Notes under the pieces: generated by a model
What the model was told of the DNA's origin: nothing
Seen by the model: the letters and a program-made list of their open reading frames with translations, nothing else
The model's database searches: none
Made by a program: the position numbers and the translations under genes
Origin: Phycisphaerae bacterium
GTDB taxonomy: Bacteria; Planctomycetota; Phycisphaerae; JAJVII01
Reading direction: 5' to 3'
Length of the DNA: 64,000 nucleotides
Assembly (NCBI GenBank): GCA_022072085.1
Contig: JAJVII010000043.1
Coordinates: 446-64,445 of the forward strand
Shown here: piece after piece, positions 30,594-50,187 of the stretch
How positions within the stretch are numbered: the first letter of the stretch is position 1
How the letters are laid out: every line of letters begins with the position of its first letter

Positions 30594-32962
30594 CCTCCGC
30601 GTCCTTGGGCGCCATTTCGCTCCTGATCGCAACGGTGATCGCGGCGGCGACGGCCCTGGCGGCCGTGGCGGCGGTCGCGTTCCGCCGTGACGGGCTGGCC
30701 CGCCTGGCCCGGCTGGGCCTGCTGCTGCTGGCGGTCGCGTTCACCCTCTCCTGCGGCATCCTGATCGAGGCCTTTGTTCATAACCGCTTCGTCATCCGCT
30801 ACGTCGCCGACTATTCCGACACCGCCCTGTCGATCGGCTACAAGGTCGCGGGCCTGTGGGCCGGTCAGGCCGGCAGCCTGCTGCTGTGGGGCTGGCTGGT
30901 CGCCGCCATGGGCCTGTTGGCAGCGTTCGGACTGCGCCGCCGCGAGCCGGCGATGCAGGGCGGGCTGATCCTGACGGTCGCGCTGGTCTGCGGCTTCTTC
31001 GGCCTGGTGATGGTCGCGGTGGACGAGGCCCGGCCCTTCACAACCTACGACGCCATCGCCCGCGTCGGGCAGGAGCAGATGCTCGACGCCTTCTCGCCGG
31101 GGGACCGCTCCCGCATCGGCGAGTGCGCCAACGCCCTCCAGAACGCCGTGATGGGCCTGGCGGCCCAGAAGGACAAGCCCTGGAGCGGCACGATCGCGCG
31201 GGTGACTTTCAAGTCCGAGTCGGTCCCCGTCCCGCCCGACCCGTCGCACCCCGGGCTTCACACGCATCAGGAATACGCCGCCTACATCTACCTGGCTGAC
31301 GGGCAGCCCGGCGGCAGCCAGGCGCTGCTGAAGGCGCTGTCAGCCCGTGTGGGCCGGCTGGCCCCGGCCAGCGAGGGCGTCGGCCTCAAGCCGCTGCTCC
31401 AGAACCCGGCGATGGTGATTCATCCGCCGATGCTGTTCGTCGGCTACGCGGGGTTCACGCTGCCGCTGGCGCTGCTGGTGGGCGGGCTGCTGGCAGGCGG
31501 GCTGGACCACGACTGGATCGCCCGCGCCCGCCGCTGGACGGTGGTGAGCTGGCTGTTCCTGGGCGTGGGCATCGTGCTGGGGATGTGGTGGGCCTACGTC
31601 GAACTGGGCTGGGGCGGCTACTGGGCGTGGGATCCGGTCGAGAACGCCTCGCTGCTGCCCTGGTTCGTGGGCACGGCGCTGCTGCACGCGCTGATCGTGA
31701 TGCGCCACCGCCGCCTGTTCAAGCCGATCGTCGCGATCCTCACGCTGCTGACTTTCGCGCTGTGCATCTTCGCGACCTACCTGGTCCGCAGCGGCGTGAT
31801 CCAGTCGGTTCACGCGTTCGGCACGAGCGTTATCGGCGACTGGTTCCTGTGGTTCCTGATCGGCTCGATCGTCGTTTCAGCCGTGGCGATGGTCGTCCGT
31901 TTCCGCGTGCTGGCGCCCGAGGGCGAGGCCCGCTGGGGCGGACGCGAGTGGGCATTGGCCGCCGCCTGCGCCCTGCTCGTGCTGATGTGCGGGTTCACGC
32001 TGGTCGGCACGACTTGGCCGCTCATTTACAAGGCCCTGTTCGGCAAGATGGGCCTGGCGATGGACCAATCCTTCTATAACAACCGCGTGCTGCTGCTGTG
32101 GGGCCTGCCCACTGTGGCGCTGATGGCGTTCGGCCCGCTGATCGCCTACGGCAAGAAGATCCCCGACGACCTCGTGCGGCTGCTGGCCTTCTGCGGCGTG
32201 GCCGCGGCGGTGGCGGTCGGCCTCCCCTACCTGGCCGGCGTAAAGAGCCTCTGGGCGGGCGTCGGGCTGGCGATCCTCGGCCTGACCTTCGGGCTGGTCG
32301 TCTACGACTTCGTGCGGGCGATGTCGCTGGAGCGGGGCCAGGGCCCGGGCGGGGTGGGCCTGGCGTTCCGCATATTCGACGCCAACCACCGCCGCTACGG
32401 CGCCCAGCTCGCCCACGCGGGCGTCGCCCTGTTCATGATGGGCGTGCTGGGCACGGCCCTGTTCAGCACCGACCAGAAGGTGCTGCTGCGGCCGCACCAG
32501 ACCGTCGCCGCGACCAACCCGCTGACCGGCGGCGAATACACCGTCACCTACGACCAGTTCGTGGAGAAGGCCGCCGACACCTACGACTACCAGGCGGTCG
32601 TCCTCGCCGTGGACGCCGGCGGCGGACTCATCCGTCTGACGCCCGAGCAGCGGTCCTACTACTCGCACGTCGGCGAGACCTACGGCGAGATCGACATGAA
32701 CTCCACCGCCGCCCGCGACGTCTACGTCGCCCTGATCGGCGTGGGCAACGGCGGGCTGGTGCGGCTGAACATCATGGTCAAGCCGCTGGCGATGTGGCTG
32801 TGGATCGGAGCGACGGCGATCGCCCTGGGCGGGCTGCTCTGCCTCGTGCCGCCGCTGATTCCCGCGTTCAACCCCGCGACGGCCCGTCAGGGGGACCGCA
32901 AACCCGAACGACCCCGGCCGACGCCGGCCAAGGCCCAGTCGCCCTCGACAGCACGGACCTGA
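30590..32962 (+). CDS. ccmF: Cytochrome c-type biogenesis protein CcmF (heme lyase, WWD domain)
   Basis: 790-aa polytopic membrane protein with a WWD signature (WWAYVELGWGGYWAWDPVENASLLPW). ATGA overlap with ccmE. Confidence 0.85.
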   Translation: MTSASLGAISLLIATVIAAATALAAVAAVAFRRDGLARLARLGLLLLAVAFTLSCGILIEAFVHNRFVIRYVADYSDTALSIGYKVAGLWAGQAGSLLLWGWLVAAMGLLAAFGLRRREPAMQGGLILTVALVCGFFGLVMVAVDEARPFTTYDAIARVGQEQMLDAFSPGDRSRIGECANALQNAVMGLAAQKDKPWSGTIARVTFKSESVPVPPDPSHPGLHTHQEYAAYIYLADGQPGGSQALLKALSARVGRLAPASEGVGLKPLLQNPAMVIHPPMLFVGYAGFTLPLALLVGGLLAGGLDHDWIARARRWTVVSWLFLGVGIVLGMWWAYVELGWGGYWAWDPVENASLLPWFVGTALLHALIVMRHRRLFKPIVAILTLLTFALCIFATYLVRSGVIQSVHAFGTSVIGDWFLWFLIGSIVVSAVAMVVRFRVLAPEGEARWGGREWALAAACALLVLMCGFTLVGTTWPLIYKALFGKMGLAMDQSFYNNRVLLLWGLPTVALMAFGPLIAYGKKIPDDLVRLLAFCGVAAAVAVGLPYLAGVKSLWAGVGLAILGLTFGLVVYDFVRAMSLERGQGPGGVGLAFRIFDANHRRYGAQLAHAGVALFMMGVLGTALFSTDQKVLLRPHQTVAATNPLTGGEYTVTYDQFVEKAADTYDYQAVVLAVDAGGGLIRLTPEQRSYYSHVGETYGEIDMNSTAARDVYVALIGVGNGGLVRLNIMVKPLAMWLWIGATAIALGGLLCLVPPLIPAFNPATARQGDRKPERPRPTPAKAQSPSTART

Positions 32963-32981
32963 CGACGGAAGGAAGCGACCC

Positions 32982-34166
32982 ATGAAACGCATCGCATACA
33001 CTCTCGCGGCCGCGCTGGCCGGCCTCCTGCTGATCGCCGGTTCGCCACTCCGCGCGGACGACGCCCCCCAGGCCCCGACGACCCAGCCCGACGCGACCGG
33101 CCAGACGCCGCGCCTGCCCGCGGGCCACCCGGCCATCGGCGACACGTCCCGCCTGCCGGCCGGGCATCCGGCCATCGGCGGACAGGGCAAGCTGCCGGCC
33201 GGCCACCCGGCGATCGGCGGGACGGGCGGCCTGCCCGCGGGCCATCCGGCCCTGGGTCCCAACGGCAAGATGCCCGCCGGCCATCCGCAGGTCGAGGGCG
33301 TGACTCCCGAGCAGGCCCCGCCCTTCCCCACCAGCCAGCCCGAGACCGTCCGCGGCGTGCTGATGATAACCGCGACCCAGGGCACCGCGGGCGCCGCCGT
33401 CCCGGCCGGCGACGACGTGCTGGTCGACCTGATGTACGGCGGGTTCTCCATCCGCCAGCTCCGCGGCAAGCTGGACAGCGGCGGGCGGCTGATCCTCAGC
33501 GACGTCCCCGTCGGCGTGAAGGTGATGCCGATGGTCACCGTGCGGCACGACAACCACGACTTCCGCCAGACCGGCCCGCTGATGTCGCCGGAGGACCCCG
33601 ACCGGGCCGTCCGCATCGCCGTCTACCAGACCACCGAGACCGCCCCGGCCTGGAAGGTGTCCATGCACCACCTGATCCTCACCAGGATGCCTGACGGCAA
33701 GTCCTATCGCGTTCGTGAGATGCTGGTCGTCGAGAACCCCACCGACAAGGTCTGGATCGGCCCGATGGACGCCAAGGGCCAGCGCGTGACCATGCACATC
33801 CCGCTGCCGGTCAACACCGACGGCCGGGCACAGGTCGACGCGACGGTGGCTGTGCCCCCGGGCAGCTCGCAGCACACGATCGCCTACGCGATCCCGGTCA
33901 AGGACGGCAAGGCCGTCGTCGAGCTGGTCGCCCCGGCCCCGACCGACCGGCTGGTCGTGGTCAAGGCCGACGACGACGGCGCGAAGGTGAGCCTGGCGGG
34001 CCTGGAGGTCGGCCAGCAGATGCAGATCGACAAGGGGCGCACGATGACCTTCTACCAGGCCGAGTCGCTCAAGGCCGGGCAGAAGGTGTCGTTGACGCTG
34101 GAGCTGTCCGACAAGCCCGCCCCGCCCAAGACCAACGAGGCGTGGCGGACCGGCGGCGGCAAGTGA
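32982..34166 (+). CDS. Secreted protein with five 13-aa xxxLPAGHPAIGx repeats (His/Pro-rich), unknown function, inserted in the ccm cluster
   Basis: Signal peptide, a 39-bp tandem DNA repeat encoding (T/S/G)xxLPAGHPAIGx five times, then a ~250-aa domain shared with the next gene (…ETAPAWKVSMHHLILTRMPDGKSYRVREMLVVENP…). Confidence 0.55.
   Translation: MKRIAYTLAAALAGLLLIAGSPLRADDAPQAPTTQPDATGQTPRLPAGHPAIGDTSRLPAGHPAIGGQGKLPAGHPAIGGTGGLPAGHPALGPNGKMPAGHPQVEGVTPEQAPPFPTSQPETVRGVLMITATQGTAGAAVPAGDDVLVDLMYGGFSIRQLRGKLDSGGRLILSDVPVGVKVMPMVTVRHDNHDFRQTGPLMSPEDPDRAVRIAVYQTTETAPAWKVSMHHLILTRMPDGKSYRVREMLVVENPTDKVWIGPMDAKGQRVTMHIPLPVNTDGRAQVDATVAVPPGSSQHTIAYAIPVKDGKAVVELVAPAPTDRLVVVKADDDGAKVSLAGLEVGQQMQIDKGRTMTFYQAESLKAGQKVSLTLELSDKPAPPKTNEAWRTGGGK
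33100..33295. repeat. 39-bp tandem repeat x5 inside the CDS (encodes LPAGHPAIG units)
   Basis: Five successive CTGCC(C/G)GC(C/G)GGCCA(C/T)CCGGC(C/G)ATCGGC-containing units. Confidence 0.6.
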
Positions 34167-34170
34167 ACCC

Positions 34171-35208
34171 ATGACGCGATCCGGGGAACAGCCCGTGTTT
34201 GGACAAGCTTACTTTCGATTCGGCGCGATGGGGATGGGAGTGGCGGCGGCGTGGCTGGCGTTCGCGCCGGCGGCGTCGGCCCAGCCCCAGGCCGACCCGA
34301 ACCCGACGCACATGACCGGCTCGATCCCCGGCACGCTGCTGGTCATGGTCCAGCAGGGAACCAAGGGGGCGCCGGCCATCGCGGGCGGCCAGGTGGCCGT
34401 GGACCTGGTGCACGGCCGGCAGTCGCACTGGCACAAGACGGCCGAGTTAAGGGAGGACGGGCGGGTGCTGTTGGAGCAGATCCCGATCACCCTGCCGATC
34501 CAGCCCCAGGTGACATTCGCCTACAAAGGCATCGACTACACGCTGGTGGGCAAGGCCATGACTCCCGGCGCCCCCGACGGCGTCGTGCGGATCACCGTGT
34601 TCGAGCCGACCGAGACCGAGCCGGCCTGGGTCGTGAAGATGCACCATATCATCATCACGCCGACGCCCGACGGGCAGGCCTACAGGGTCGAGGAGAGCCT
34701 GGTGGTCGAGAACCCCGACGACCATACCTGGATCGGCAGACCCGACGGCCACGGCGGGCACGTCACGATGCGGCGGGCCCTGCCGGAGAACCTGGACAAC
34801 AAGCCCGAGTTCGTCAGCGATCAGCCGCTGCTGGGCGGCACGTCGAACTTCAAACTCGGCTACGTCATCCCGGTCCGCGACCGCAAGGCCGCCCTGCGAG
34901 TGCCGATGGTCGCGCCGACGCGGCAGGTAGAGGTCATGGTGACCGCCGACGAGGGCACACAGGTCGAGGCGGTGGACCTCACGCCCGACCCGTCCATGAA
35001 CCAGATGACCGGCAGAGAGTGCTACAAGGCCACGGACCTGGCGACCGGGCAGACGGTGGGCGTCTCGCTGGCGCTGCCGGCAGCCAAGGCGGTCGCCACG
35101 GCCGCCGGCGGCTCGCCCCTGCGCAAGATGCTCGCGCTGATCGGCGGAGCGATCGTGCTGCTGGGCCTGGGCATGTTCTGGTTCAGGAAGAAAGAGAAGA
35201 AGGCGTAG
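34171..35208 (+). CDS. Paralogue of 32982..34166 without the HP repeats, with a C-terminal TM anchor (unknown function)
   Basis: Shares …TE(T/P)(A/E)PAW(K/V)V(S/K)MHH(L/I)I(L/I)T…DG(K/Q)(S/A)YRV(R/E)E…VVENP… with the previous gene. Signal-like MGMGVAAAWLAFAPAASA gives an alternative start at ~34228. C-terminal helix LALIGGAIVLLGLGMFWF. Confidence 0.5.
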   Translation: MTRSGEQPVFGQAYFRFGAMGMGVAAAWLAFAPAASAQPQADPNPTHMTGSIPGTLLVMVQQGTKGAPAIAGGQVAVDLVHGRQSHWHKTAELREDGRVLLEQIPITLPIQPQVTFAYKGIDYTLVGKAMTPGAPDGVVRITVFEPTETEPAWVVKMHHIIITPTPDGQAYRVEESLVVENPDDHTWIGRPDGHGGHVTMRRALPENLDNKPEFVSDQPLLGGTSNFKLGYVIPVRDRKAALRVPMVAPTRQVEVMVTADEGTQVEAVDLTPDPSMNQMTGRECYKATDLATGQTVGVSLALPAAKAVATAAGGSPLRKMLALIGGAIVLLGLGMFWFRKKEKKA

Positions 35209-35212
35209 CGTC

Positions 35213-35971
35213 ATGAGCGTCGTGCTGGCTGCATCCGACACCGCGAAGGCCCCGCCGCCGACCCGGTCGCTCCCGGCGGTGCAGGCGCTGGAGATCAGCA
35301 AGCGGATCGACGGCCGACCGATCCTCCAGGACGTCTGCATCGACATCGCCAAGGGGCGCTACGTCGCCCTGCTGGGGGCCAACGGCGCGGGCAAGACCAC
35401 ACTGATGAAACTGCTCTCGATGCTCGCCCCGCCCAGCGGCGGGCAGCTCCACCTGTTCGGCCAGCGGGTCACGCGCGAGGGGTCGCCGAAGCTCCGGGCG
35501 AGGATCGGGCTGATCGGCCATCAGCCGATGCTCTACGGCGACCTGACGGCGCGGGAGAACCTGCTGCTGTTCGGGCGGCTCTACGGCGTGTCCGACGTCG
35601 CCGACCGGGCCGAGGCGCTGCTGAAGCGCGTGGACCTGGCCGGCCGCGCGGACGACCCGGTGAAGGCTTACAGCCGCGGCATGACCCAGCGGGCCTCCAT
35701 CGCCCGGGCCCTGATGCACGGGCCGGACCTGCTGCTGGCCGACGAGCCCTTCAGCGGGCTGGACGCCCCCTCTAACCAGATGCTGGAGGAGCTGCTGGCC
35801 GAGTTGCACCGCGACGGCAAGACGATCGTGCTGGCCCATCACGACATCGAGCAGAGCCTGCGGGTCGCCGAGCAGGCCGTCGTGCTCCGCCGCGGACGCG
35901 TGGTCGTCGACCGCCCGACCCGGCAGCTCGACCGCGAGACGACGCTGGCGGAAATGACCGGGCAGGCATGA
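35213..35971 (+). CDS. ccmA: Heme exporter ATP-binding protein CcmA (ABC ATPase)
   Basis: Walker A GANGAGKTT, signature FSGLD?-like LSGG region (PFSGLD), Walker B LLLADEP. Position and family consistent with ccmA. Confidence 0.75.
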   Translation: MSVVLAASDTAKAPPPTRSLPAVQALEISKRIDGRPILQDVCIDIAKGRYVALLGANGAGKTTLMKLLSMLAPPSGGQLHLFGQRVTREGSPKLRARIGLIGHQPMLYGDLTARENLLLFGRLYGVSDVADRAEALLKRVDLAGRADDPVKAYSRGMTQRASIARALMHGPDLLLADEPFSGLDAPSNQMLEELLAELHRDGKTIVLAHHDIEQSLRVAEQAVVLRRGRVVVDRPTRQLDRETTLAEMTGQA

Positions 35972-36231
35972 ATACCGAATGGCGAATGTCGAATGGATGA
36001 CGAAACCCGAATGCCGAATGTCGAATGGCCCGCCGGCGGCGCAAGCTTCCGGTTCGTCATTGGTGCTTCGTCATTCTTTCGTCATTGGGAAATCGGGGCT
36101 TCCGAAAGGCCCCGGGGTCTGGCTCGCTTTTCGCCGGCTCGGAGGCGTAAAGCGTGCCTGACCCCCTCTCCCAGGGGCCTTTCAGAAACCCCCATTCGTC
36201 ATTCGTCATTGCCCCCCGAAGGGGGCCTGCC
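35972..36231. repeat. MITE-like CGAATG word-repeat element (left CCGAATGGCGAATGTCGAATGG…, right …CATTCGTCATTCGTCATTG) with internal hairpins
   Basis: Forward GAATG-type repeats at 35975-36030 and reverse-complement CGTCATT/CATTCG repeats at 36045-36210, plus small GC hairpins (GGGGCTTCCGAAAGGCCCC, CCCCCCGAAGGGGGC). Fills the ccmA-ccmB spacer. Same family as 7391-7706. Confidence 0.55.
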
Positions 36232-36921
36232 ATGACCGTGCTGGGCCAGATCGTTCTGCTCACCGGCAAGGACCTGCGGATCGAGCTGCGCACGCGGCAG
36301 ACCGTCGGACTGGTCATCACGCTGGGGCTGCTGATCGTGACGGTGCTGGGGCTGGGCCTGGCGCCGGAGGGCAAGCTGGGCGGCTACGCGGCGCCGGCAG
36401 TGCTCTGGGTCGCCTACCTCTTCGGCGGCGTGCTGATCTTCGAGAAGACGATGGACAAGGAGCGCCGCGACGGGGCGATGGCCGGCCTGATGATGGCCCC
36501 GATCGACCGCGGCGTGATCTTCCTGGCCAAGCTGCTGAGCAACCTGGCGCTGCTGGGGTTCCTGGCCGTCGTGATCGCGCTGTTCGCGATCGTGCTGTTC
36601 GGGCTGGACCTGTCGGCGGCCCCGGGCGGTTTCGCCGGGGTGATGGCGATGAGCCTGCTGGGGTTCGCCGCGGTCGGGACGCTTTTTTCGGCGCTGACCA
36701 GTTCGACGCGGCTGTCGGGCGGGCTGCTGGCGATGCTGGTGTTCCCGATCGCCATCCCATTGGTGATTGCATCGACCAGCGTGCTCAACCGGCTGTTCGC
36801 GTCCAAGCCCGCTGCCGGGGACGACGGCACGTTTCTGACGGCCCTGGGCGTGCTGGTCGCATTTGACGTGGTGTTCCTGGTGGTGAGTTGGCTGATCTTC
36901 GAGGTCGTGCTGGAACCGTGA
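36232..36921 (+). CDS. ccmB: Heme exporter membrane protein CcmB
   Basis: About 229 aa with 6 TM helices and CcmB-like N-terminus MTVLGQIVLLTGKDLRIELRTRQ. ORF-track 36154 is an extension into the repeat element. Confidence 0.7.
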   Translation: MTVLGQIVLLTGKDLRIELRTRQTVGLVITLGLLIVTVLGLGLAPEGKLGGYAAPAVLWVAYLFGGVLIFEKTMDKERRDGAMAGLMMAPIDRGVIFLAKLLSNLALLGFLAVVIALFAIVLFGLDLSAAPGGFAGVMAMSLLGFAAVGTLFSALTSSTRLSGGLLAMLVFPIAIPLVIASTSVLNRLFASKPAAGDDGTFLTALGVLVAFDVVFLVVSWLIFEVVLEP

Positions 36922-37085
36922 GGTCAATGACGAATGTCGAATTCCGAATGACGAAGGAATGGCGAAGCACCAATGACGAATGGAAGGCGCGCGTCGCTCT
37001 CGGCCCGTGGGCATTCGTGATTCGGGCTTCGTCATTCACTCGACATTCGACATTCATCACTCGACATTGCCCGTAGGAGTCTTCC
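36922..37085. repeat. MITE-like CGAATG word-repeat element (third copy), ccmB-ccmC spacer
   Basis: AATGACGAATGTCGAATTCCGAATGACGAAGGAATGG… is followed by its inverted counterpart …ATTCGTGATTCGGGCTTCGTCATTCACTCGACATTCGACATTCATCACTCGACATTG. Confidence 0.55.
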
Positions 37086-37763
37086 ATGCGGATGAGAGTC
37101 ACACTCTACTGGCTGGCCACGGCGGCGGCGTTCGCCGGCGGGGTGGCCTTGCTGATCCTCTACACGCCCAGGGAACGGACGATGGGCGTGATCCAGAAGG
37201 TCTTCTACGTCCATCTGCCGTCGGCAATCTGCATGCTGCTGTGCGGGCTGCTGGTGTTTGTCGCAAGCATCGGCTACCTCGGCTCGCGGCGGATGTGGTG
37301 GGACGACCTGGCGGCGGCCGCGGCGCGGGTGGCGATCCTGCTGGGGGCGATCGTCCTGATGACCGGCATGCTGTGGGGCCACATCGCCTGGTGGGGCCGG
37401 ATGCGGTGGTGGTACTTCACCCCCAAGCTCACCTTCAGCCTGCTGCTGTTCCTGCTCTATCTGGTCTACGTGATGATTCGGCCGGCCGTCGAGTCGCCGC
37501 AACGCCGGGCGGTCGTGGCGGCCGTCTACGGCGTCATCGCCTTCCTGGATGTACCGCTGGTCTGGCTGTCGGCCAGGCTGATCCCCGACCCGCTGCACCC
37601 GGTCAACGAGGGCATGGCCGCCCCGATGAAGATGACCCTGCTCTACTGGTTCGTGCCGGTGGGGCTGATGGTGGCCGGGCTGATCGTCGCCCGGTTCCGG
37701 CTCAACCGCGCCGTCCGCGAGCGGGCCGACGCCCTGGCCGGGTCGGCCGGAGGTGACGCATGA
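37086..37763 (+). CDS. ccmC: Heme exporter protein CcmC-like (divergent tryptophan-rich loop)
   Basis: 225 aa with 6 TM helices and a W-rich periplasmic loop (GMLWGHIAWWGRMRWWYFTPKLT) in the position of the CcmC WWD motif. Family call is by architecture and context. Confidence 0.65.
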   Translation: MRMRVTLYWLATAAAFAGGVALLILYTPRERTMGVIQKVFYVHLPSAICMLLCGLLVFVASIGYLGSRRMWWDDLAAAAARVAILLGAIVLMTGMLWGHIAWWGRMRWWYFTPKLTFSLLLFLLYLVYVMIRPAVESPQRRAVVAAVYGVIAFLDVPLVWLSARLIPDPLHPVNEGMAAPMKMTLLYWFVPVGLMVAGLIVARFRLNRAVRERADALAGSAGGDA

Positions 37764-37876: not shown

Positions 37877-37880
37877 GACC

Positions 37881-37894
37881 GGCACGAACGACGC
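37881..37894 (+). promoter_or_regulatory. Weak sigma-54-like element GGCACG-AACGA-CGC
   Basis: GG/GC spacing and the GGCACG -24 box are correct but the -12 region lacks TT. Lies upstream of the 37934 octaheme gene. Confidence 0.3.
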
Positions 37895-37933
37895 CCGCAA
37901 CCGTTCGGTCCTGATTCTGGATTCGAGTCTGAA

Positions 37934-39136
37934 GTGAACGAGCAACTTGTACGACATCTTGGCGTGTCCCGATGGATCGCCCGATCCGCGATGGCGCTGC
38001 TGTCGATCGGACTGGTCGCGGGTCTGGCCCGGGCGCTGGCTGACGGCGACGCCCCGGCCGCCGAACCCGCGAAGGTGCAACCCGCGCCCAACCCGCACTG
38101 GAACGACGCCGGCTGCGCCACCTGCCACGGGCCGGGCGAGCCGAAGAAGATCGCCCCGGCTGACGCCGACAAGCTCTGCCTCTCCTGCCACGACGGCAAG
38201 CGGGCGCTGCTGGAGACCCACCCGGTCGGCCGACCGCTGGACGCCGAGCAGTTCAACCAGCCGCCCGGCTGGCCGTTGACCGACGGGCGCATCGGCTGCC
38301 TGAGCTGCCACAACCCGGCCCGGGAGCACTGCCGGCGCGGGCAGCGGAGGCCGATGCTCAACCCGATGTTCCTGCGCGGGCTGGCCGCCGGGGGCGTGGT
38401 CAACGCGTTCTGCTCCAACTGCCATCGGCTGGGCAATTACCAGAAGCTCAACCCGCACGTCCAGCGCGACGAGTCGGGCGTGCTGGCAGCCAAGTGCGGC
38501 TTCTGCCACGGCGAGGCGATGAGCGCCCAGGCGAAGGTGCGCACCGGCTACGAGGGGCTGCACCGCCCGCAGGTGGAACTCTGCCGCGGCTGCCATCCGA
38601 CGCACATCGAGTATTTCAATCCCGGCCATGTCGGGCAGAAGCTCTCGCCGACGATGCTGGCGCGGGTCAAGCCGCTGGCTGACCTGGTCGGTCCGGCGCC
38701 CGGCGGGCAGATCGCCTGCTCAACCTGCCACAACCCGCACGAAGCCGGCGTCTTCCCCCTCGGCAGCGAAATGAACGGTCCGACGCCGCTGCGGGCGGCC
38801 GGCCCGGACAAGATCATCGCCTCGATGAACCCCAGCAAGCTCTGCTCGAGCTGCCACGAGATGGCCCGCGGCGCCGGGGCGCTGAAGGTCGAGAAGGGCC
38901 CGGAGGACGCCAACGCCCCGGTCCTGCCCGAGCCGCCGCTGCTGAAGCTGGCCGTCTGCCCCGTGGACGACCGGCCGCTGGGGCCCGACGCGATCACCGC
39001 GACCGTCCGCGGGCAGCGGATCACCTTCTGCTCGCGCGTCTGCATGAGGAAGTTCCAGACCGACCCCGACGCCTGCCTGCTGAAGATCCGCCGTATGCAG
39101 CAGCAGGCGCCGACCACGCAACCGCAATCGCCGTGA
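37934..39136 (+). CDS. Octaheme c-type cytochrome with C-terminal YHS/TRASH-like metal-binding domain
   Basis: Signal peptide (MALLSIGLVAGLARALA is an alternative start at 37991). Eight heme motifs: CATCH, CLSCH x2, CSNCH, CGFCH, CRGCH, CSTCH, CSSCH. The C-terminal CPVDDRPLGPDAITATVRGQRITFCSRVCMRKFQTDP matches a YHS-type Cys pattern. Confidence 0.75.
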   Translation: MNEQLVRHLGVSRWIARSAMALLSIGLVAGLARALADGDAPAAEPAKVQPAPNPHWNDAGCATCHGPGEPKKIAPADADKLCLSCHDGKRALLETHPVGRPLDAEQFNQPPGWPLTDGRIGCLSCHNPAREHCRRGQRRPMLNPMFLRGLAAGGVVNAFCSNCHRLGNYQKLNPHVQRDESGVLAAKCGFCHGEAMSAQAKVRTGYEGLHRPQVELCRGCHPTHIEYFNPGHVGQKLSPTMLARVKPLADLVGPAPGGQIACSTCHNPHEAGVFPLGSEMNGPTPLRAAGPDKIIASMNPSKLCSSCHEMARGAGALKVEKGPEDANAPVLPEPPLLKLAVCPVDDRPLGPDAITATVRGQRITFCSRVCMRKFQTDPDACLLKIRRMQQQAPTTQPQSP

Positions 39137-39146
39137 GGACGCCGCC

Positions 39147-41144
39147 TTGGGCATGACAAGAATCATAAGCGTGCTTGTGAAGGATCGCACCGGCGACAGG
39201 CTCCGTCGCTTGCAGCGGGGACTCTGCTGCGCGGCGCTGGCAGCGCTGGCCATGATGGGCCTGCCCGCAGGCGCCCGCGCCGACGACACCGAAGGCTGCC
39301 TGATGTGCCACCGCTACGCGGGGCTGACGGCGGTCGACCCCAAGACCGACCACATTCGGCTCTATGGCGTCGACCCGGACTACTATCGCCACGAGCTGGG
39401 CCCGCACGTCCGGCTGAAGTGCACCGACTGCCACGACCGCGAAGCGGTGAGCACCGTGCCGCACAAACCGGTCCAGCCGGTGGACTGCACGCGGCAGTGC
39501 CACCTGAGAAGTCCGCAGCGGACCGAGCAGCTCTTCAGCCACAGCCGCATCGCCAGCATGCTCAAGGCGTCGGTTCACGACCCCGGCATGACGCTGGCCC
39601 AGAGCAACCGGCTGCTGGGCAGCCCGCTGCGCGAGGGCCAGAGCACCTGCCTGCTCTGCCACGACGAGCCGCGGTTCCTGCCGCCGGGGCACTCGTGGGC
39701 CGACAGTGAGGCCCCGATCGAGCGCTGCAACGTCTGCCACGACGAGTCGATGGGCGTGGACACGCGATACTTCTACCGCCACGTCGAGGCCCGCAGCGCG
39801 TCGGCCCGCAACAACCAGGACACCGTCCGCGTCTGCGCCCTCTGCCACGCCAACGACGCGGTGCGCAAGCAGTACGAGCTGCCCGACTCGATCGCCAGCT
39901 ACCTCAACAGCTTTCACGGCAAGGCCACGCTGCTGGGCAGCCAGGAGACCGCCGACTGCCTCGACTGCCATGTCGGGCCCATGCAGAACGTCCACATGGT
40001 GATGCGGCACGCCGACGCCAGGGCGCCGACGCATCCCGGCCGGCTCGAGGACACCTGCCGCACGCCCAGATGCCACCCGGCCGCAGGTGCAAGAATCAGC
40101 TCGGCCGCCGTCCACCTGGACCTCGCGACCGGACGAAGCGTCGAGTGGGTCATCGCACTGCTGTTCATCTTCCTGATCCTGTTCACCTTCGGCCCGTCGG
40201 TGATGCTGACGGCGCTCAAGATGCTCCACGTCGTCGTCGGCCGCCACGACCCGGGCGACCACGACCGTGCCCACCGCGCCGAGCGGATCGTCGTCCAGCC
40301 GCGCGGGCGCAAGCTGCTCGAGCGGTTCAACCCACACCAGCGGGCCCAGCACTGGGTGCTGGCGATCACCTTCGCGACGCTCGTGCTGACGGGCTTCCCG
40401 ATGAAGTTCGCCGACCGGGCGTGGGCCGCCTGGCTGGTCAACCTGATCGGCGGGCTCACCGTCGCCCGCGTCGTCCACCGCGTCGCCGGCGTGACGCTGA
40501 TCGTCGCGATGCTCTACCACATCGGCTACATCATCCGCACGCTGGTGCGCAGCAAGCGGCGCGAGGGCAAGAGCTGGTTCCGCGCCGTCTACGAACTGCC
40601 GATGATGATCACGTTCGCCGACCTCAAGCAGATGGGCCAGATGATGGCCTACCTGCTGTTCCTGCGCCGGACGCGGCCGCAGTTCGACCGCTTCAACCTC
40701 GAAGAGAAGTTCGAATACATCGGCGTGTTCTGGGGCACGTTCCTGCTGGGGTTCACCGGGGCGCTGATGTGGGCCAACGCATGGACCAGCCAGCACTTCC
40801 CCGGGCGGCTGCTCACCATCGCCACGCTCGTCCACACGATGGAGGCGCTGCTGGCGCTGCTGCACGTGGGCGTCGTCCACATGATCAGCGTCATTTTCGC
40901 GCCCGGCGTGTTCCCGATCAGCCCGGCCATGTTCACCGGCAGGACGCCCACCGAGGAAATCGCCGAGGCCCACGGCGCGATGCTCGCCCGGGCCGAGGCG
41001 GCCATGGGCGTCGGCGAGCATTACGATTCCCCGCCGTCAGGTGGGGATCGGGGGTCAGGGGCCGGGGGCCAGGCGCCTCCGCCCGATCCCCAGCCCCCGA
41101 CCCCCGACCCGGCCAAGGGCGGAAAGGAGGACAGCCATGGTTAA
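39147..41144 (+). CDS. CbcL-like fusion: periplasmic multiheme cytochrome c domain (6 CXXCH + CX3CH/CX4CH) fused to a membrane diheme cytochrome b (HydC/FdnI family) domain; putative quinol oxidoreductase feeding periplasmic cytochromes
   Basis: Signal peptide, then CLMCH, CTDCH, CTRQCH, CLLCH, CNVCH, CALCH, CLDCH and CRTPRCH. Five TM helices follow, with HydC/FdnI-like His pairs (…NPHQRAQHWVLAITFATLVLTGFPMKF…, …EALLALLHVGVVHMISV…). Low-complexity Pro-rich tail. Confidence 0.8.
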   Translation: MGMTRIISVLVKDRTGDRLRRLQRGLCCAALAALAMMGLPAGARADDTEGCLMCHRYAGLTAVDPKTDHIRLYGVDPDYYRHELGPHVRLKCTDCHDREAVSTVPHKPVQPVDCTRQCHLRSPQRTEQLFSHSRIASMLKASVHDPGMTLAQSNRLLGSPLREGQSTCLLCHDEPRFLPPGHSWADSEAPIERCNVCHDESMGVDTRYFYRHVEARSASARNNQDTVRVCALCHANDAVRKQYELPDSIASYLNSFHGKATLLGSQETADCLDCHVGPMQNVHMVMRHADARAPTHPGRLEDTCRTPRCHPAAGARISSAAVHLDLATGRSVEWVIALLFIFLILFTFGPSVMLTALKMLHVVVGRHDPGDHDRAHRAERIVVQPRGRKLLERFNPHQRAQHWVLAITFATLVLTGFPMKFADRAWAAWLVNLIGGLTVARVVHRVAGVTLIVAMLYHIGYIIRTLVRSKRREGKSWFRAVYELPMMITFADLKQMGQMMAYLLFLRRTRPQFDRFNLEEKFEYIGVFWGTFLLGFTGALMWANAWTSQHFPGRLLTIATLVHTMEALLALLHVGVVHMISVIFAPGVFPISPAMFTGRTPTEEIAEAHGAMLARAEAAMGVGEHYDSPPSGGDRGSGAGGQAPPPDPQPPTPDPAKGGKEDSHG

Positions 41145-42279
41145 GCGCGTCCTCCGACAGATCGAGGTGAAGCTGGCCAAGCTGAGCTGGGCCGCCATCC
41201 GCACGACGACGGTTCGGCTGTGGGCGGCGGCGATCCTGGTCGTCGTGGTCTGGGCCGGCGCCGTCGCGGTGCGCTACCTGGTCCGCCAGGTCTTCCAGCC
41301 CGCGCCGGTTCCGCAGAAGTTCCTCGCCTGGCAGGGACACATAGAAGCCGACGACCTGCGACAGCCTGACGTGCCGGGCCTGAACGCCCCCAGCCAGCGG
41401 GCCCCGCTGGGCCACTATCACACCGTCGAGTCGTGGTATCAGCCCGAGCCGCGCAACGCCTGCACGCTGTCCGGCTGCCACGGTCCGCTGCCGCACGAGA
41501 AGATCGCGACGGTGCGGGCCTTCGCCAACTTCCACACGACGTTCCTCAACTGCCTCACCTGCCACGGAGAATATGACGCCGGTCCGATCCCCGCCTGCTG
41601 GGTAAACACCCAGAGCGGCGAGGCCCAGGACCCGCCGCCGCTGCTCCAGATCATCAGCTACTTCCAGGAGCAGCAGGCCGAGCTTCGCAAGCGGGCCGAG
41701 TCGGCCGACGCCGCCGGCCAGCCTCAGCCTGACGCCGGAGCGGCGCTCTTCCCGCCGCTGTTCGCCGACACGCCACGGCAGGCCAACGACAAGGTGCTGC
41801 CGTTGCTGCGCGAGGTGATCGCGCTGACCGGTCCGCGCGGCGTGCTGAACTACCTGCTGCTCCAGATTCAGACCAGCCAGCCCGGCTCGCCGGTGTGGAA
41901 GCACGCGATGGCCCAACTCGCCAGCGAAGCCCCCAGCCATGCCCGCGGGCAATACGGCGCCAAGATCGCCCCGGGCGGCGGCGACGACTACCTCGACGCC
42001 AACGACGCCTTGGCCAAGCTGGCCCGGCAGTATCTCAAGGCCTCCCAGGGCGGCGACCGCTCACGGCTCTACGGGCAGATTCACAAGTCCGTGATGTCCC
42101 AGCCGCACGATTGCGTCACCTGTCACGACACGCAGGCCCATCGGCTGGATTTCGCCAAGCTCGGCTATTCGCCGCAGCGTGAGAACGACCTGCGCAACCT
42201 GGAGCAGGCACGCGTCGGCGACATGGTCCGCCACGGCGGCGTCTGGCGGATGCCGGCCATGATGATGGAGGGCCCGTGA
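41137..42279 (+). CDS. Membrane-anchored c-type cytochrome (2 CXXCH + 1 CX4CH), CbcL-associated
   Basis: AAGGAGG lies 6 nt upstream of ATG 41137. TM anchor (LWAAAILVVVVWAGAVAV), then CTLSGCH, CLTCH and CVTCH. Overlaps the preceding gene by 8 nt. ORF-track 41041 is an extension. Confidence 0.6.
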   Translation: MVKRVLRQIEVKLAKLSWAAIRTTTVRLWAAAILVVVVWAGAVAVRYLVRQVFQPAPVPQKFLAWQGHIEADDLRQPDVPGLNAPSQRAPLGHYHTVESWYQPEPRNACTLSGCHGPLPHEKIATVRAFANFHTTFLNCLTCHGEYDAGPIPACWVNTQSGEAQDPPPLLQIISYFQEQQAELRKRAESADAAGQPQPDAGAALFPPLFADTPRQANDKVLPLLREVIALTGPRGVLNYLLLQIQTSQPGSPVWKHAMAQLASEAPSHARGQYGAKIAPGGGDDYLDANDALAKLARQYLKASQGGDRSRLYGQIHKSVMSQPHDCVTCHDTQAHRLDFAKLGYSPQRENDLRNLEQARVGDMVRHGGVWRMPAMMMEGP

Positions 42280-43289
42280 TGCGCGCCCGCCTCCTCTGCC
42301 TGGTCCTGGGGGCGACGGTCCTGCTGACGGCCCCCGCCGACGCCGTCGCGCCCATGCCCCCGGACAAGCGGATCGTCGCGAAGGTCTCCAGCCGACTGGC
42401 CGGTCCCGACGATGCCCCGCTGGTCATGCCCACCGACGTCGCCTCCGACAGCCGCGGCCGCGTCTACGTCGCCGACGGCGTGAACAACCGCGTGCTGATC
42501 TTCGACGCCGCAGGCAAACCCGCCGGCCTGCTGACCACCGCCCGCGACACGCCGCTCAAGTGCCCGACCGGCCTGTTCGTGGACGCGACCGACCGGCTCT
42601 GGATCGCCGACACCGGCAACCGGCGGGTTGTCGTCGTCGCCCCGACCGGCGAACTGGCCGACGTGATCCCCGTCGCGGGCGCCGACGCCGCCCACCCGAC
42701 CGACGCCACCGACGTCGCCGTCAGCGCCGACGGGACGCGCCTGTTCGTCATCGACAACGACAACCACCGCATCCTGATCCGCGACAACGCGACCGGCAAG
42801 TGGACCGCCGCCGGCAAGTCCGGCCAGGCGCTGGGCCAGTTCCGCTGGCCATTTACCGCCTGCATCGACGGCGACGGCGAGCTGCTGGTCTGTGAGGCCA
42901 TCGGCGCCCGCGTGCAGCGGGTCGTCCCCGGACCCGAGCCCCGGTGGGCCGGCGAAATCGGCCACTTCGGCGTTCGGCTGGGCCAGCTCTATCGCCCCAA
43001 GGGCGTCGCGTCGGTCGGCCGCGGCGACGCGACCCGCGTCTACGTCTCCGACTCGACCACCGGCACGGTGCAGGCGTTCGACCTCCAGGGCCGCTCGCAG
43101 GGCGCGCTGACCGACGACCAGGGCCGCCTGCTTCGATTCGAGCACCCGATGGGCCTGTGGATCGACCGCCAGGGGCGGCTGCTCATCGTCGAATTCGGCG
43201 CCAACCGCGTCGCGGTCGTCGACCTGCCCGACAGCCGGCCCGCGCCCGACGCGCCGACCACGCAACCCGACGCGGAGGGCCGCCCGTGA
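42276..43289 (+). CDS. NHL-repeat beta-propeller protein (periplasmic)
   Basis: Signal peptide, then repeated …RVYVADGVNNRVLIFD…, …LWIADTGNRRVVVV…, …LFVIDNDNHRILIRD…, …VYVSDSTTGTVQAFD… blades. Confidence 0.7.
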   Translation: MMRARLLCLVLGATVLLTAPADAVAPMPPDKRIVAKVSSRLAGPDDAPLVMPTDVASDSRGRVYVADGVNNRVLIFDAAGKPAGLLTTARDTPLKCPTGLFVDATDRLWIADTGNRRVVVVAPTGELADVIPVAGADAAHPTDATDVAVSADGTRLFVIDNDNHRILIRDNATGKWTAAGKSGQALGQFRWPFTACIDGDGELLVCEAIGARVQRVVPGPEPRWAGEIGHFGVRLGQLYRPKGVASVGRGDATRVYVSDSTTGTVQAFDLQGRSQGALTDDQGRLLRFEHPMGLWIDRQGRLLIVEFGANRVAVVDLPDSRPAPDAPTTQPDAEGRP

Positions 43290-46099
43290 TCGGCAGCCGA
43301 CCAGACCGGCCCGCCGTCGTTGGCCTGCTGGCGCTGGCGGCCGCTGCGCTCTGCCTGCCGGCCGGCGCCCGCGGCCAGGACCGCAACCCGGTCTCGCTGA
43401 CGGCCAACGGCGGCCAGCAGTGCGCGACCTGCCACCTGCGATGGACCGACAGTTTCACGACCAACTATCAGGCCGGCCAGTTGCCGCTGCTGATCGATCG
43501 GCCGGACAACAACGTCGTCGCCGAGGAAGACTCCTGCCTGGGCTGCCATGACGGCGGCGTCGCCGACAGCCGCGACCGCGTCTGGCGCAAGCACGGCCAC
43601 CGCACCGGCATCGCCGTACCCAAGGACATGGCCGTCCCCGAGCAACTGCCACTGGACGGCGGCAAGGTCGCCTGCCGCACCTGCCACTCGGCCCACGGCG
43701 GCGGCGCCGGCGCGGGCGGCATCTCCGACATCGTCTTCCTGCGCATGGACAACAGCCGGGACCAGCTCTGCAAGAGCTGCCACACCGACGCCGCCGGCGG
43801 CAAGGTCGCCCACTCGGCCCACCCGATGGGCCCGATGCCCGCGCCGATCCCCGCGATGCTCGCCGACGCCGGCGGACGCGCCGGCAAGGACGGCCGCACC
43901 CTTTCCTGCCAGACCTGCCACGCCCCCCACGGCGGCGGCGACGACAACCTGCTCATCATCGACGCCAGCCGAAGCACCCTGTGCGTCGCCTGCCACACGC
44001 AGATGGCAGTCGAGCGCTGGCGGCCGGGCATCAGCGGCGATCACCCCCAGAACCCGCCGCTCCAGAACCGCGCCCAACGCGACGCGATCAAGGCCATGGG
44101 CGGACGCGTCGGACCCGACGACACCCTCGTCTGCCTGAGCTGCCACCGCATGCACAACGGCGCCGCCGGCAGCAAGATGCTCGCCGACACGCTGGCCGAC
44201 GGACGCTTCTGCCTCGACTGCCACCCCGACCGCAAGACGATACTGGCCTCGATGCACGACCTGCGCAAGAGCGCCCCCGAGTCCCGCAACGACGCTGGCC
44301 GAACGCCCGACCAGAGCGGGCCCTGCGGCGCGTGCCACAGCTTCCACACCTACTCCCGCAAGCCGGTTCCCGCACCGGTCGATCCGACCGGGCTGTGCAC
44401 CACCTGCCACCGACCGGGCGGCGCGGCCGCGAAGTTCAACCCGACCTTCGGCCATCCGACGGACCTGGGCGGGGCCAACCTGCCGGCGCAGGCCAGGCTG
44501 CCGCTCTATCCCGACGCCGCCCACGCCGGGGCCAGGTCCATCGCCTGCCTGAGCTGCCACAACCCGCACGACCCGGGCAACGCGAACTTCCTCCGCGACA
44601 AGCCCGACGAACTCTGCGGCCGATGCCACCCTGGGCCGGCCGAGTCGCTCGCGGGCGCCCACGACCTGACCGCCATGCCCAAGGCCGCCAACGGCCGCGG
44701 CATGACGGTTGAGCAGAGCGGGCGCTGCGGCTTCTGCCACGCCATCCACAACAGCGAAGGCCCGCTGCTGTGGGCCGCAACGCCCGGCCAGCCGGCTTCG
44801 CCCGACGCCGCATGCACCGGCTGCCACAGCGGCGAAGGTGTCGCCCGGGCCAAGCCCGCCAGCGCCCTGTCGCACCCGACCGGCCCGGGGACCGCGGGGT
44901 TCGCGCAGGTGCTGCCGATCAGCGTGCCGCTGTTCGACGCCGCCGGCCATCGCGCCAAGGACGGCGCCGTCGCCTGCGGAACCTGCCACGACGTCCACGG
45001 CGACAGCCGCGCCCGCGCGTCGCTGCTCCGCCTGGACAAGGGCCTGCCGACTTCCGCGCTCTGCGTCCAGTGCCACGCCGAGCAAGGCTTCATGGCCCGA
45101 GGCCAGCACGACGCCCGCGGCGGCGCCGACGCGTGGAAGGCAATCGTCAAGACCAACCCCAAGGCTGGTGAGGACCTCTGCGCCGCCTGCCACGTCGCCC
45201 ACAGCGACGACAAGGCCCGCGGCCTGTGGACCGTCGCCGGCAAGGGCGGCGGCGCCCCGGCTGACGCCGCCTGTCTGAGCTGCCATCCCAAGCAGGCCTG
45301 GGCCCAGCCGGCCGGCGAGCTGGCTGCCGGGACGATGATTCATCCGCAGATCGTCCAGGCGACCGCGGCGCTCAAGGCCGTCGCCCTGCCGATGGGGCCC
45401 GATCCGGGCGACGGCAAGCTGGACATCGAGTGCGCGACCTGCCACAACCCGCACGCGACGCGCGGGACGGCCGACATGCTCCGCACCGCCGGCAGCCTCG
45501 AGGCAGCGACGCTCTGCACCCGCTGCCACGCCGATGCCCGCGCGGTGCAGTCCGGCCCGCACGGGGCGGCGTCGCTGGCTGCGGCGAACAAGGTCAAGGC
45601 GGCCCAGCCCGCCGCCGGCCAGGCGGCCGCGGTCTGCGGGCCCTGCCACGACGTCCACGCAACCGACCACAGCAGCCGCTCGAAGCTCTGGGCCCTGGGA
45701 GAGCCGACCAAGGCCGACGGCACGCCGGACGGCTCGCCCGACGCCCGCTGCCTCCAGTGCCACGGGCCGGGCGGCTCGGCCCGCCAGCCGGCGATGGTCA
45801 AGCACCCCAAGGTTTACCTGCCGGTGGGCGGCGCCCAGGGCGGGATCACCTGCGCGACCTGCCACATCCCGCACGGAAGGACCGACCTGCCCGTGGCCGC
45901 GCTGGGCGACGACGCCGAAGCCCGCACGCGGCGCGAATCGACCCGGCCGATGGTTCGCCCCGACGCCGTGCAGGACAGCTGCGCCATCTGCCACGGGCCC
46001 GACGCCCTGCGGCGGTTCCTCTACTTCCACCAGCCCGAGAAGCGGCTGCGGATGCACTTCTGGGCATCGCCGCCGCCCAAAGGTCCGTCGCAGAAATAG
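43286..46099 (+). CDS. Giant multiheme c-type cytochrome (~24 CXXCH), secreted
   Basis: GTG start (GTGA overlap, GGAGGG 7 nt upstream). Signal peptide (…LCLPAGARGQD), then 24 CXXCH motifs spread over 937 aa. ORF-track 42944 is an extension. The 1005-aa ORF 43040..46057(-) is antisense. Confidence 0.8.
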   Translation: MIGSRPDRPAVVGLLALAAAALCLPAGARGQDRNPVSLTANGGQQCATCHLRWTDSFTTNYQAGQLPLLIDRPDNNVVAEEDSCLGCHDGGVADSRDRVWRKHGHRTGIAVPKDMAVPEQLPLDGGKVACRTCHSAHGGGAGAGGISDIVFLRMDNSRDQLCKSCHTDAAGGKVAHSAHPMGPMPAPIPAMLADAGGRAGKDGRTLSCQTCHAPHGGGDDNLLIIDASRSTLCVACHTQMAVERWRPGISGDHPQNPPLQNRAQRDAIKAMGGRVGPDDTLVCLSCHRMHNGAAGSKMLADTLADGRFCLDCHPDRKTILASMHDLRKSAPESRNDAGRTPDQSGPCGACHSFHTYSRKPVPAPVDPTGLCTTCHRPGGAAAKFNPTFGHPTDLGGANLPAQARLPLYPDAAHAGARSIACLSCHNPHDPGNANFLRDKPDELCGRCHPGPAESLAGAHDLTAMPKAANGRGMTVEQSGRCGFCHAIHNSEGPLLWAATPGQPASPDAACTGCHSGEGVARAKPASALSHPTGPGTAGFAQVLPISVPLFDAAGHRAKDGAVACGTCHDVHGDSRARASLLRLDKGLPTSALCVQCHAEQGFMARGQHDARGGADAWKAIVKTNPKAGEDLCAACHVAHSDDKARGLWTVAGKGGGAPADAACLSCHPKQAWAQPAGELAAGTMIHPQIVQATAALKAVALPMGPDPGDGKLDIECATCHNPHATRGTADMLRTAGSLEAATLCTRCHADARAVQSGPHGAASLAAANKVKAAQPAAGQAAAVCGPCHDVHATDHSSRSKLWALGEPTKADGTPDGSPDARCLQCHGPGGSARQPAMVKHPKVYLPVGGAQGGITCATCHIPHGRTDLPVAALGDDAEARTRRESTRPMVRPDAVQDSCAICHGPDALRRFLYFHQPEKRLRMHFWASPPPKGPSQK

Positions 46100-50185: not shown

Positions 50186-50187
50186 GG

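Follow-up and report, generated by a model that had tools for sequence, protein, structure and literature searches.

We have analysed a stretch of 64,000 nucleotides (nt) from a Phycisphaerae bacterium (NCBI GenBank assembly GCA_022072085.1, contig JAJVII010000043.1, positions 446 to 64,445 of the forward strand; G+C content about 69%), referred to below as the window, with respect to two adjacent cytochrome genes, B and C. The product of gene B combines a periplasmic multiheme cytochrome c domain with a diheme cytochrome b domain in a manner similar to CbcL (GSU0274) of Geobacter sulfurreducens, reportedly the subject of work by Zacharoff in 2016. Gene C encodes a membrane-anchored triheme cytochrome that accompanies B in nearly all related loci. 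The two genes lie within a cassette of five, A to E, and their products probably constitute one quinol-oxidising complex. The features of B and C in amino acids (aa) and nt, with the transmembrane (TM) segments, are as follows.

39147..41144, forward strand: gene B, CbcL-family c/b cytochrome fusion (open reading frame (ORF); 665 aa from TTG 39147, 663 aa from ATG 39153)
39147..39281, forward strand: signal peptide of B, aa 1-45 (hydrophobic segment aa 25-44; predicted cleavage between ARA and DD, placed by eye)
39297..40076, forward strand: periplasmic eight-heme c domain of B, aa 51-310 (motif scan)
39297, 39420, 39486 (CX3CH), 39648, 39726, 39834, 39957 and 40056 (CX4CH), forward strand: starts of the c-domain motifs (motif scan)
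40137..40211, forward strand: linker TM helix of B, aa 331-355 (hydropathy, helix 328-362 of the AlphaFold2 (AF2) model, alignment with the equivalent CbcL-clade helix)
40323..40937, forward strand: FdnI/HydC-type four-helix diheme cytochrome b domain of B, aa 393-597 (Pfam, FdnI alignment, fold match)
40350 (H402), 40476 (H444), 40833 (H563) and 40878 (H578), forward strand: predicted heme b ligands of B (alignment to FdnI)
41124..41131, forward strand: Shine-Dalgarno-like AAGGAGGA for gene C (read from the sequence)
41137..42279, forward strand: gene C, membrane-anchored triheme cytochrome (380 aa; 100% identical to P0135, a hypothetical protein)
about 41188-41295, forward strand: N-terminal TM segment of C (hydropathy, single TM)
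41461 (CX4CH), 41551 (CXXCH) and 42112 (CXXCH), forward strand: heme motifs of C (motif scan)

The NCBI gene model for B begins at ATG 39153 rather than at TTG 39147, and its product (P0001, 100% identical) is recorded as a hypothetical protein of a Phycisphaerae metagenome-assembled genome (MAG) with the locus tag BIFFINMI_03157. An initial annotation, made from the sequence of the window, had proposed that c and b domains occur here in one polypeptide, and this is borne out by the succession of a signal peptide, eight heme c sites, a linker helix and a domain of the Pfam family PF01292. The motif scan recovered the six CXXCH sites (aa 51, 92, 168, 194, 230 and 271) and the two variant sites that had been claimed, the latter being a CX3CH (CTRQCH, aa 114) and a CX4CH (CRTPRCH, aa 304). 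The resulting pattern, 2-2-3-2-2-2-2-4, recurs in practically every one of about 80 homologous genes. In an alignment of 40 homologs every motif cysteine and histidine is invariant, as are eight further histidines, which fit eight bis-His hemes. The loop length of the last c-domain site differs by lineage, being CXXCH in CbcL, CX4CH in the window and CX8CH (CANTYGTQQCH) in a 398-aa cytochrome encoded at 119-1315 of a distantly related locus, L087.

The hydrophobic segments of B comprise the signal peptide, the linker and four more helices, and helices are present in the AF2 model at 328-362, 394-418, 435-471, 516-540 and 551-582. The five helices ascribed earlier to the cytochrome b are present; the bundle itself consists of the four FdnI helices, the fifth being the linker, which would bring the chain back to the cytoplasm.

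The b domain has been assigned to Ni_hydr_CYTB (PF01292) with an E-value of 3.2e-10 and 40.5 bits against a cutoff of 30.1, the outcome for which a hidden Markov model (HMM) search had been suggested as a check. A profile built from 40 B homologs gave only one credible match among PDB sequences, namely FdnI, the gamma subunit of Escherichia coli formate dehydrogenase-N (1kqf_C, E-value 2.9e-9). FdnI is also the top PDB fold match of the AF2 model of B, with a TM-score of 0.74 normalised to FdnI and a probability of 1.0; the predicted local distance difference test (pLDDT) score is 80-94 in this domain. The heme ligands H18, H57, H155 and H169 of FdnI pair with H402, H444, H563 and H578 of B, all of which are invariant in the family. 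The conserved His pairs of the initial annotation are hence those of FdnI, and the concern that the C-terminal helices might lack aligned His ligands does not hold. The loop between bundle helices 2 and 3, R-[FW]-[NST]-x-x-E-K-F-[ED]-[YF], reads R-F-[NST]-x-x-E-K-F-E-Y in the B clade and R-W-N-Y-W-E-K-F-D-F in the CbcL clade. It aligns to K108-K114 of FdnI, which we take to border the menaquinone site of Fdn-N. Besides the bundle fold and the four ligands, B resembles FdnI by analogy in having a periplasmic redox module and one TM helix that packs beside the bundle; in Fdn-N that module with its helix is FdnH. B differs from FdnI in that it has no FdnG or FdnH partner, carries its periplasmic multiheme module in cis and scores below the NCBIfam equivalog cutoff.

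The periplasmic N-terminal domain of CbcL carries nine hemes, and the six helices of the protein include those of a diheme b domain of the HydC/FdnI type (PMC6295460; PMC9129911; bioRxiv 10.1101/2022.08.31.506072). The CbcL/MtoC/MtrH family to which it belongs has c domains with 3-23 motifs and identities of 28.6-100% (Zhong & Shi 2018, PMC6295460), the members of the Geobacter/Desulfuromonas CbcL clade sharing at least 57.6% (PMC6295460). No solved CbcL structure turned up in the PDB searches or in the literature examined. The reference used for this clade is a nine-CXXCH gene of Desulfuromonas thiophila that was frameshifted and has been reconstructed here, and which serves as a proxy for the clade and not as GSU0274 itself. 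It was reached from short CbcL-clade fragments (14), the query being a garbled, machine-read alignment figure (PMC9129911). The D. thiophila homolog (L001, 4697-6540) is annotated as two genes of 434 and 179 aa, with the frameshift near ...FIRKDIP / IWLQRLFGPDSL...; it is either a sequencing error or a pseudogene.

B is colinear with the D. thiophila protein at 29% identity over 471 aa (E-value 2e-51), the alignment spanning heme 4 of B, the linker helix and the entire b domain. For P0023, a relative in which B and C are fused, it covers 586 aa at 28.5% and extends to the sixth helix of CbcL. The CX4CH of B occupies the exact position of the ninth CXXCH. The description of B as CbcL-like is supported because of this colinearity with a nine-heme Desulfuromonas protein, which also speaks against the c domain being of an unrelated family; the architectures differ by eight against nine hemes and five against six helices. 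The three features examined for the CbcL/MtoC/MtrH family in the broad sense, namely an N-terminal multiheme c domain, an FdnI-like b domain and colinear similarity, are all found in B, and the comparisons support its membership. The nine CXXCH motifs, the six helices in one chain and the identity of at least 57.6% that characterise CbcL sensu stricto are not found, and B belongs to a distinct clade.

The likeness to CbcL extends to the order of signal peptide, bis-His multiheme c domain, linker helix and diheme b domain, and to the loop motif, the His pair of TM4 and the position of the last heme site. There are also differences. B has eight sites, with a strictly conserved CX3CH and CX4CH among them, whereas CbcL has nine. 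B ends after the fifth helix and the sixth lies in the separate gene C. The identity is at the bottom of the family range and far below that of the CbcL clade. C adds a 330-aa periplasmic triheme domain that CbcL does not have, and the one Desulfuromonas cbcL locus examined is without C or an NHL gene. In Geobacter the periplasmic domain of CbcL reduces the soluble triheme protein PpcA (PMC9129911), whereas here the triheme protein would be tethered to the complex. The two Planctomycetes entries in the 2018 survey (OQB81828.1 and OHB84720.1), with 11 CXXCH and 6 TM (PMC6295460), are of a different type from B.

Gene C is the most distinctive part of the locus. The downstream TM-anchored triheme partner of the initial annotation, with CX4CH as its first site, stands: C has one TM segment and three motifs, CTLSGCH (CX4CH), CLTCH and CVTCH, which are invariant in an alignment of 25 sequences, the first being always CX4CH in this clade. 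Four further histidines (H95, H120, H133 and H316) are invariant in the same alignment and are sufficient for three bis-His hemes. C and its relatives are all annotated as hypothetical, and no Pfam family was found when C and the 25-member set were scanned. The model of C (pLDDT 78) had no fold match in the PDB. A HMMER scan of 1.84 billion representative proteins yielded only 470 relatives at an E-value of 0.001 or below, and no description of C was found in the literature searched. Membership in the NapC/NirT/NrfH/CymA group was considered and rejected, as C has three motifs and is not tetraheme, and PF03264 was matched by one of the 25 members only, at an E-value of 0.084.

The stop codon TAA of B (41142-41144) and the start codon ATG of C (41137) produce the 8-nt overlap that had been read earlier from the sequence and that is conserved at the junction in related loci. 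An alternative start of C at GTG 41041 was rejected: the homologs align from MVKRV onward, and the ribosome-binding site and the overlap fit ATG 41137. We have assigned the start to this ATG because the N-termini of the homologs, the ribosome-binding site and the conserved overlap cATGGnTAA agree. Owing to the overlap most B proteins end in ...H-G-stop and most C proteins begin with M-V.

Of the 84 loci that carry a B homolog, 82 have a C homolog as the next gene downstream, and the linkage is obligate in this sense. In one of the two exceptions the contig ends; in the other the best C match was upstream, with another copy downstream at a -8 junction. Junctions were classed as -8, -4 or -1 overlaps or as fused, larger negative gaps being artefacts of open-frame extension, and the 8-nt overlap is the commonest class among the 84 loci. 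In four of them B and C are fused into a single chain; P0023 and P0038 are fusions of this kind. Other permutations occur as well. In P0273 (1497 aa) one polypeptide holds the eight-site c domain and the b domain together with a C-like segment and a giant cytochrome resembling E; an NHL protein is not part of the chain. L087 encodes the eight-site c domain and its helix in a gene of their own, and its b domain continues into a short C-like domain. Such rearrangements argue strongly that c domain, b domain and C function together in one complex, and the arrangement in L087 suggests that the periplasm-side heme b may have C as its direct partner instead of the eight-heme domain. One MAG labelled Myxococcota (L004, 15361-18210) has both a separate pair of B and C and, with an NHL gene after it, a diverged paralog in which the two are fused; this paralog has 949 aa and is 41% identical to B, and the module has thus been duplicated within that genome.

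In the fusions the helix of C follows the b domain at the same distance as the sixth helix of CbcL, and the BLAST alignment extends into it (L[FY]xxILR[ST]). The local score between the two helices is not significant alone, being reached by 29 of 500 shuffles. By its position we read the C helix as the probable counterpart of the sixth helix of CbcL, and B and C together as a CbcL-type six-helix core with an additional periplasmic triheme domain, split in the cytoplasmic linker. Within this clade six helices occur in one polypeptide only in the fused forms.

A two-gene bc-type quinol oxidoreductase made of a diheme cytochrome b and a TM-anchored multiheme cytochrome c is also known from G. sulfurreducens as CbcBA (GSU0593-0594). 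Both of its subunits are needed for function, CbcB has no sequence homology to CbcL, and CbcA is anchored by a helix at its C-terminus, from which heme b may receive a His (bioRxiv 10.1101/2021.04.15.440034). C differs in being anchored N-terminally by a helix without an invariant His. Donation of a ligand in the manner of CbcA has been rejected for C, since the TM region holds no invariant His in the 25-sequence alignment and B alone holds all four FdnI-type ligands.

A scan with one genome per GTDB species identified 101 relatives, of which 80 were kept; the sister clade of CbcL is represented by these 101 matches and by more than 400 protein clusters. The 80 are almost all from Phycisphaerae, Tepidisphaerales or other Planctomycetota MAGs, a few being labelled Verrucomicrobiota, Myxococcota or Bacillota, with no cultured strain among them.

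The genes around B and C in the window are the following.

30590..37763, forward strand: System I ccm genes directly upstream of the cassette (Pfam CcmF_C, ABC_tran, CcmB, Cytochrom_C_asm)
30590-32962, forward strand: ccmF (Pfam)
35213-35971, forward strand: ccmA (Pfam)
36154-36921, forward strand: ccmB (Pfam)
37086-37763, forward strand: ccmC (Pfam)
37934..39136, forward strand: gene A, eight-heme cytochrome with a C-terminal TRASH/YHS-like Cys motif, 10-16 nt upstream of B
42276..43289, forward strand: gene D, secreted NHL-repeat beta-propeller (Pfam NHL, E-value 1.4e-20; start overlapping the stop of C, GTGATG)
43286..46099, forward strand: gene E, 24-heme cytochrome (937 aa from GTG 43286; 24 CXXCH; 4-nt overlap with D)

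The five genes are tightly packed, with a gap of 10-16 nt between A and B and overlaps of 8 nt (B/C), 1-4 nt (C/D) and 4 nt (D/E), and the succession of cytochrome, B, C, NHL propeller and large cytochrome is found again in relatives both close and remote. Many loci have an A-like cytochrome upstream of B, most have a D homolog downstream of C, and E-like proteins occur in 56; E itself matches the Pfam family Paired_CXXCH_1 (E-value 6e-52). The closest long contig, L086, has B and C without a large cytochrome directly after them. The tail of A (aa ~345-380) has the arrangement C-x23-C-x3-C and a weak YHS/TRASH match (E-value 0.0019, below cutoff), which would make it a zinc-ribbon-like metal-binding module on a periplasmic cytochrome; A-like proteins of other loci match only aa ~40-310 of A, and the tail may be lineage-specific. 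The two ORFs between ccmF and ccmA (394 and 345 aa, 32982-35208) match nothing in Pfam or NCBIfam; they are possible divergent maturation factors of the CcmH/CcmI type.

An NHL propeller followed by a large cytochrome, as in D and E, is also found in the clusters DFE_0448-0451 and DFE_0461-0465 of Desulfovibrio ferrophilus IS5, the likeness being by gene order and type only. These clusters have been proposed as outer-membrane conduits for electron uptake (PMC5815863). Their deletion gave no defect in Fe(III) oxide reduction and their role is itself uncertain (PMC9769857). A cytochrome b is not mentioned for them in the literature examined. A FeGenie survey reported DFE and CbcL matches together in Phycisphaerae MAGs (bioRxiv 10.1101/2022.03.26.485925).

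The cassette belongs to a larger island of cytochrome genes. At 20045-25985 a 392-aa decaheme protein with a lipobox-like AAMGC and a DmsE/MtrA-type match below cutoff is followed by a 672-aa protein, an NHL propeller and a 12-heme cytochrome. The 672-aa protein has a signal peptide, no Pfam family and a C-terminal ...ILFSIKRRF typical of outer-membrane barrels, and the region is a possible porin-cytochrome conduit. A split cytochrome b6 (PF00033) with a PetD-like subunit IV (PF00032) precedes a multiheme cytochrome c at 12990-15431, beside which no Rieske gene was seen in the ORF list, and a NapC/NirT/NrfH-like cytochrome with 12 motifs is encoded at 15823-17364. The island as a whole holds three different candidate quinol-oxidising modules, which recalls the ImcH/CbcL/CbcBA set of Geobacter. 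At its head (3438-9056) are a sigma-54 response regulator (receiver, AAA and HTH_8), a periplasmic binding protein, a HAMP protein and a histidine kinase; in Geobacter cbcBA is under the control of the sigma-54 regulator BccR. Just downstream of the operon, on the reverse strand (47203-54366), lie three HlyD-like membrane-fusion proteins, one with a GAF and one with a PqqD domain, and a SecA-like ATPase.

We consider it probable, with a fair measure of doubt, that B and C form an inner-membrane menaquinol:multiheme-cytochrome oxidoreductase of 13 hemes that feeds periplasmic or extracellular electron transfer. The sequences themselves show the architecture, the heme and ligand sites, the homology to a CbcL-clade protein and to FdnI, and the linked B-C pair with its fusions and its cassette; for the complex we infer heme occupancy, the contact of B with C, the position of the quinone site, the direction of flow and the final acceptor. 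B and C would be two subunits of one CbcL/MtoC/MtrH-family complex, B contributing eight c-type and two b-type hemes and C three c-type hemes (2 b and 11 c). Sec is predicted to export the N-terminal domain of B, and the Ccm system whose genes lie just upstream would supply its eight bis-His hemes. The four-helix bundle would hold a cytoplasm-side heme b (H402/H578) and a periplasm-side heme b (H444/H563). Translation of C is presumably coupled to that of B through the 8-nt overlap, and its N-terminal helix would take the position of the sixth helix of CbcL and place three more hemes in the periplasm. The site of menaquinol oxidation would be close to the cytoplasm-side heme b, the reverse of what FdnI does. 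The electrons would then cross to the heme b on the periplasmic side and reach the c hemes of C and those in the N-terminal domain of B, before moving on to the neighbouring cytochromes A and E, which are associated with the NHL propeller D. The porin-like conduit 16 kb upstream is a possible onward route. Protons would be released on the cytoplasmic side and the membrane potential consumed rather than built, which would make low-potential acceptors usable. CbcL is a quinol oxidase required below -0.1 V with a quinone site proposed on the cytoplasmic side (bioRxiv 10.1101/2022.08.31.506072; 10.1101/2021.04.15.440034), and the argument that such a site dissipates the potential is the same as that made for CbcL with low-potential acceptors (bioRxiv 10.1101/2022.08.31.506072).

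Several observations weigh against this proposal. The AF2 models of the heme-rich parts are of low confidence, and the position aligned to N110 of FdnI is conserved in the family only as N, S or T. The comparison with CbcL depends on the reconstructed D. thiophila proxy and not on GSU0274, and all known members of the clade come from uncultured MAGs, known from their sequences alone. Homologs of the 672-aa porin-like protein occur near B in only 3 of 86 loci (L005, L019 and L025), and an exit through the outer membrane is hence a possibility only. The family members MtoC and MtrH occur in Fe(II) oxidisers (PMC6295460), and the D. ferrophilus clusters of NHL and cytochrome genes, by analogy, would point to uptake (PMC5815863), their deletion having left Fe(III) oxide reduction intact (PMC9769857).

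The last two points lead to a reading in which the same B-C complex runs inward as a quinone reductase, taking electrons from periplasmic or outer cytochromes that are supplied by Fe(II), reduced humics, a solid donor or a syntrophic partner. Menaquinone would then be reduced on the cytoplasmic side as by FdnI, whose natural direction this is and to which the b domain is homologous, and membrane potential would be built. No sequence feature separates the two directions (PMC6295460). Phycisphaerae MAGs are rich in reductive and very rarely carry oxidative markers of extracellular electron transfer (FeGenie, bioRxiv 10.1101/2022.03.26.485925), CbcL as the best-studied relative works as a quinol oxidase, and the window ORFs scanned contain no marker of carbon fixation or of Fe(II) oxidation such as Cyc2. 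Outward flow has been weighted roughly twice as heavily as inward flow, the main rival, which we regard as rather unlikely.

An improbable alternative is that B and C serve as a general periplasmic hub for reductases of soluble substrates such as nitrite, sulfur or other oxyanions, outside any extracellular chain. The NapC/NirT/NrfH-like cytochrome and the cytochrome b6/PetD-like pair with its cytochrome c are consistent with such a role, some neighbouring cytochromes weakly match NrfB-like models, and respiration of nitrogen oxides and sulfur is predicted for some Phycisphaerae (PMC11266412). Against it, no catalytic reductase (NrfA, Nar, Nap, Dsr, molybdopterin or similar) is encoded by the ORFs scanned, the conserved partners are multiheme cytochromes and NHL propellers only, and a decaheme lipoprotein followed by a porin-like protein lies upstream. 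It is extremely unlikely that B is the gamma subunit of a formate dehydrogenase or a Ni-Fe hydrogenase, as automatic annotations have it; JGI names of homologs include 'formate dehydrogenase gamma subunit', and the NCBIfam model TIGR01583 matches B with an E-value of 2.8e-17. The score of that match is 63.4 bits, far under the cutoff of 115.85, TIGR02125 reaches 26.8 bits against 121.5, and B carries the N-terminal eight-heme domain. Neither the window ORFs covered by the Pfam scans nor the related loci that were inspected showed FdnG/FdnH or Ni-Fe hydrogenase catalytic genes. Since the gamma models are far below their cutoffs and catalytic partners are missing from the scanned ORFs, B has the FdnI fold and is not a subunit of Fdn or Hyd, and the annotation as formate dehydrogenase gamma subunit has been rejected.

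Few gates are known that connect the quinone pool with extracellular electron transfer, and CbcL is one of them; in the strict sense it is switched off at high potential, and its union of an FdnI-type cytochrome b with a multiheme cytochrome has been called unique. B joins this known family, and B with C and their fixed non-canonical heme sites is a new variation on it. The locus represents a well-populated sister clade of CbcL that has the same core, always an extra tethered triheme subunit, and two fixed non-canonical heme sites. The clade is a natural comparison for how electrons leave the b hemes in CbcL-type proteins and suggests what the sixth helix of CbcL is a remnant or precursor of. 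Genome surveys of Phycisphaerae predict fermentation or conventional respiration of nitrate, sulfate or oxygen, depending on the order. We offer tentatively, as a possible rather than a probable account, that C is the obligatory third module of a large CbcL-type branch, a c-b-c machine with two periplasmic heme arms on one FdnI-type core, and that the five-gene cassette is the main respiratory electron exit or entry in uncultured Phycisphaerae and their relatives. B and C together form a specific marker pair by which cytochrome-based respiration can be predicted for uncultured Phycisphaerae of peat, groundwater, sediments and anammox reactors. Counts of CXXCH or HMMs trained on Geobacter would see 6 and not 8 hemes in B and would miss C.

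Two further features lie at the 3' end of B.

41022..41141, forward strand: Gly-rich (GGN) then Pro-rich (CCN) C-terminal tail of B, specific to this genome
41045..41110, forward strand: imperfect inverted repeat or RNA hairpin in the tail-coding DNA (31-nt arms, 81% complementary)

The tail is missing from 39 other homologs, which stop soon after the b domain, mostly with ...HG-stop, and it is predicted to be disordered (pLDDT below 50 in the AF2 model). The palindromic DNA that had been noticed in this region is confirmed by the two arms (41045-41075 and 41080-41110), which are upstream of the true start of C, and by the RNA fold of 41030-41145 (-73.8 kcal/mol, z = -3.9 against shuffles). 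A terminator or a conserved regulatory element was considered and rejected, as there is no T-run and the whole tail is absent from the other homologs. Promoter and terminator scans of 35900-47200 gave nothing above shuffled expectation. We read the palindrome as a probable genome-specific by-product of a low-complexity Gly/Pro-rich insertion, which may locally affect mRNA structure or the coupling of C translation.

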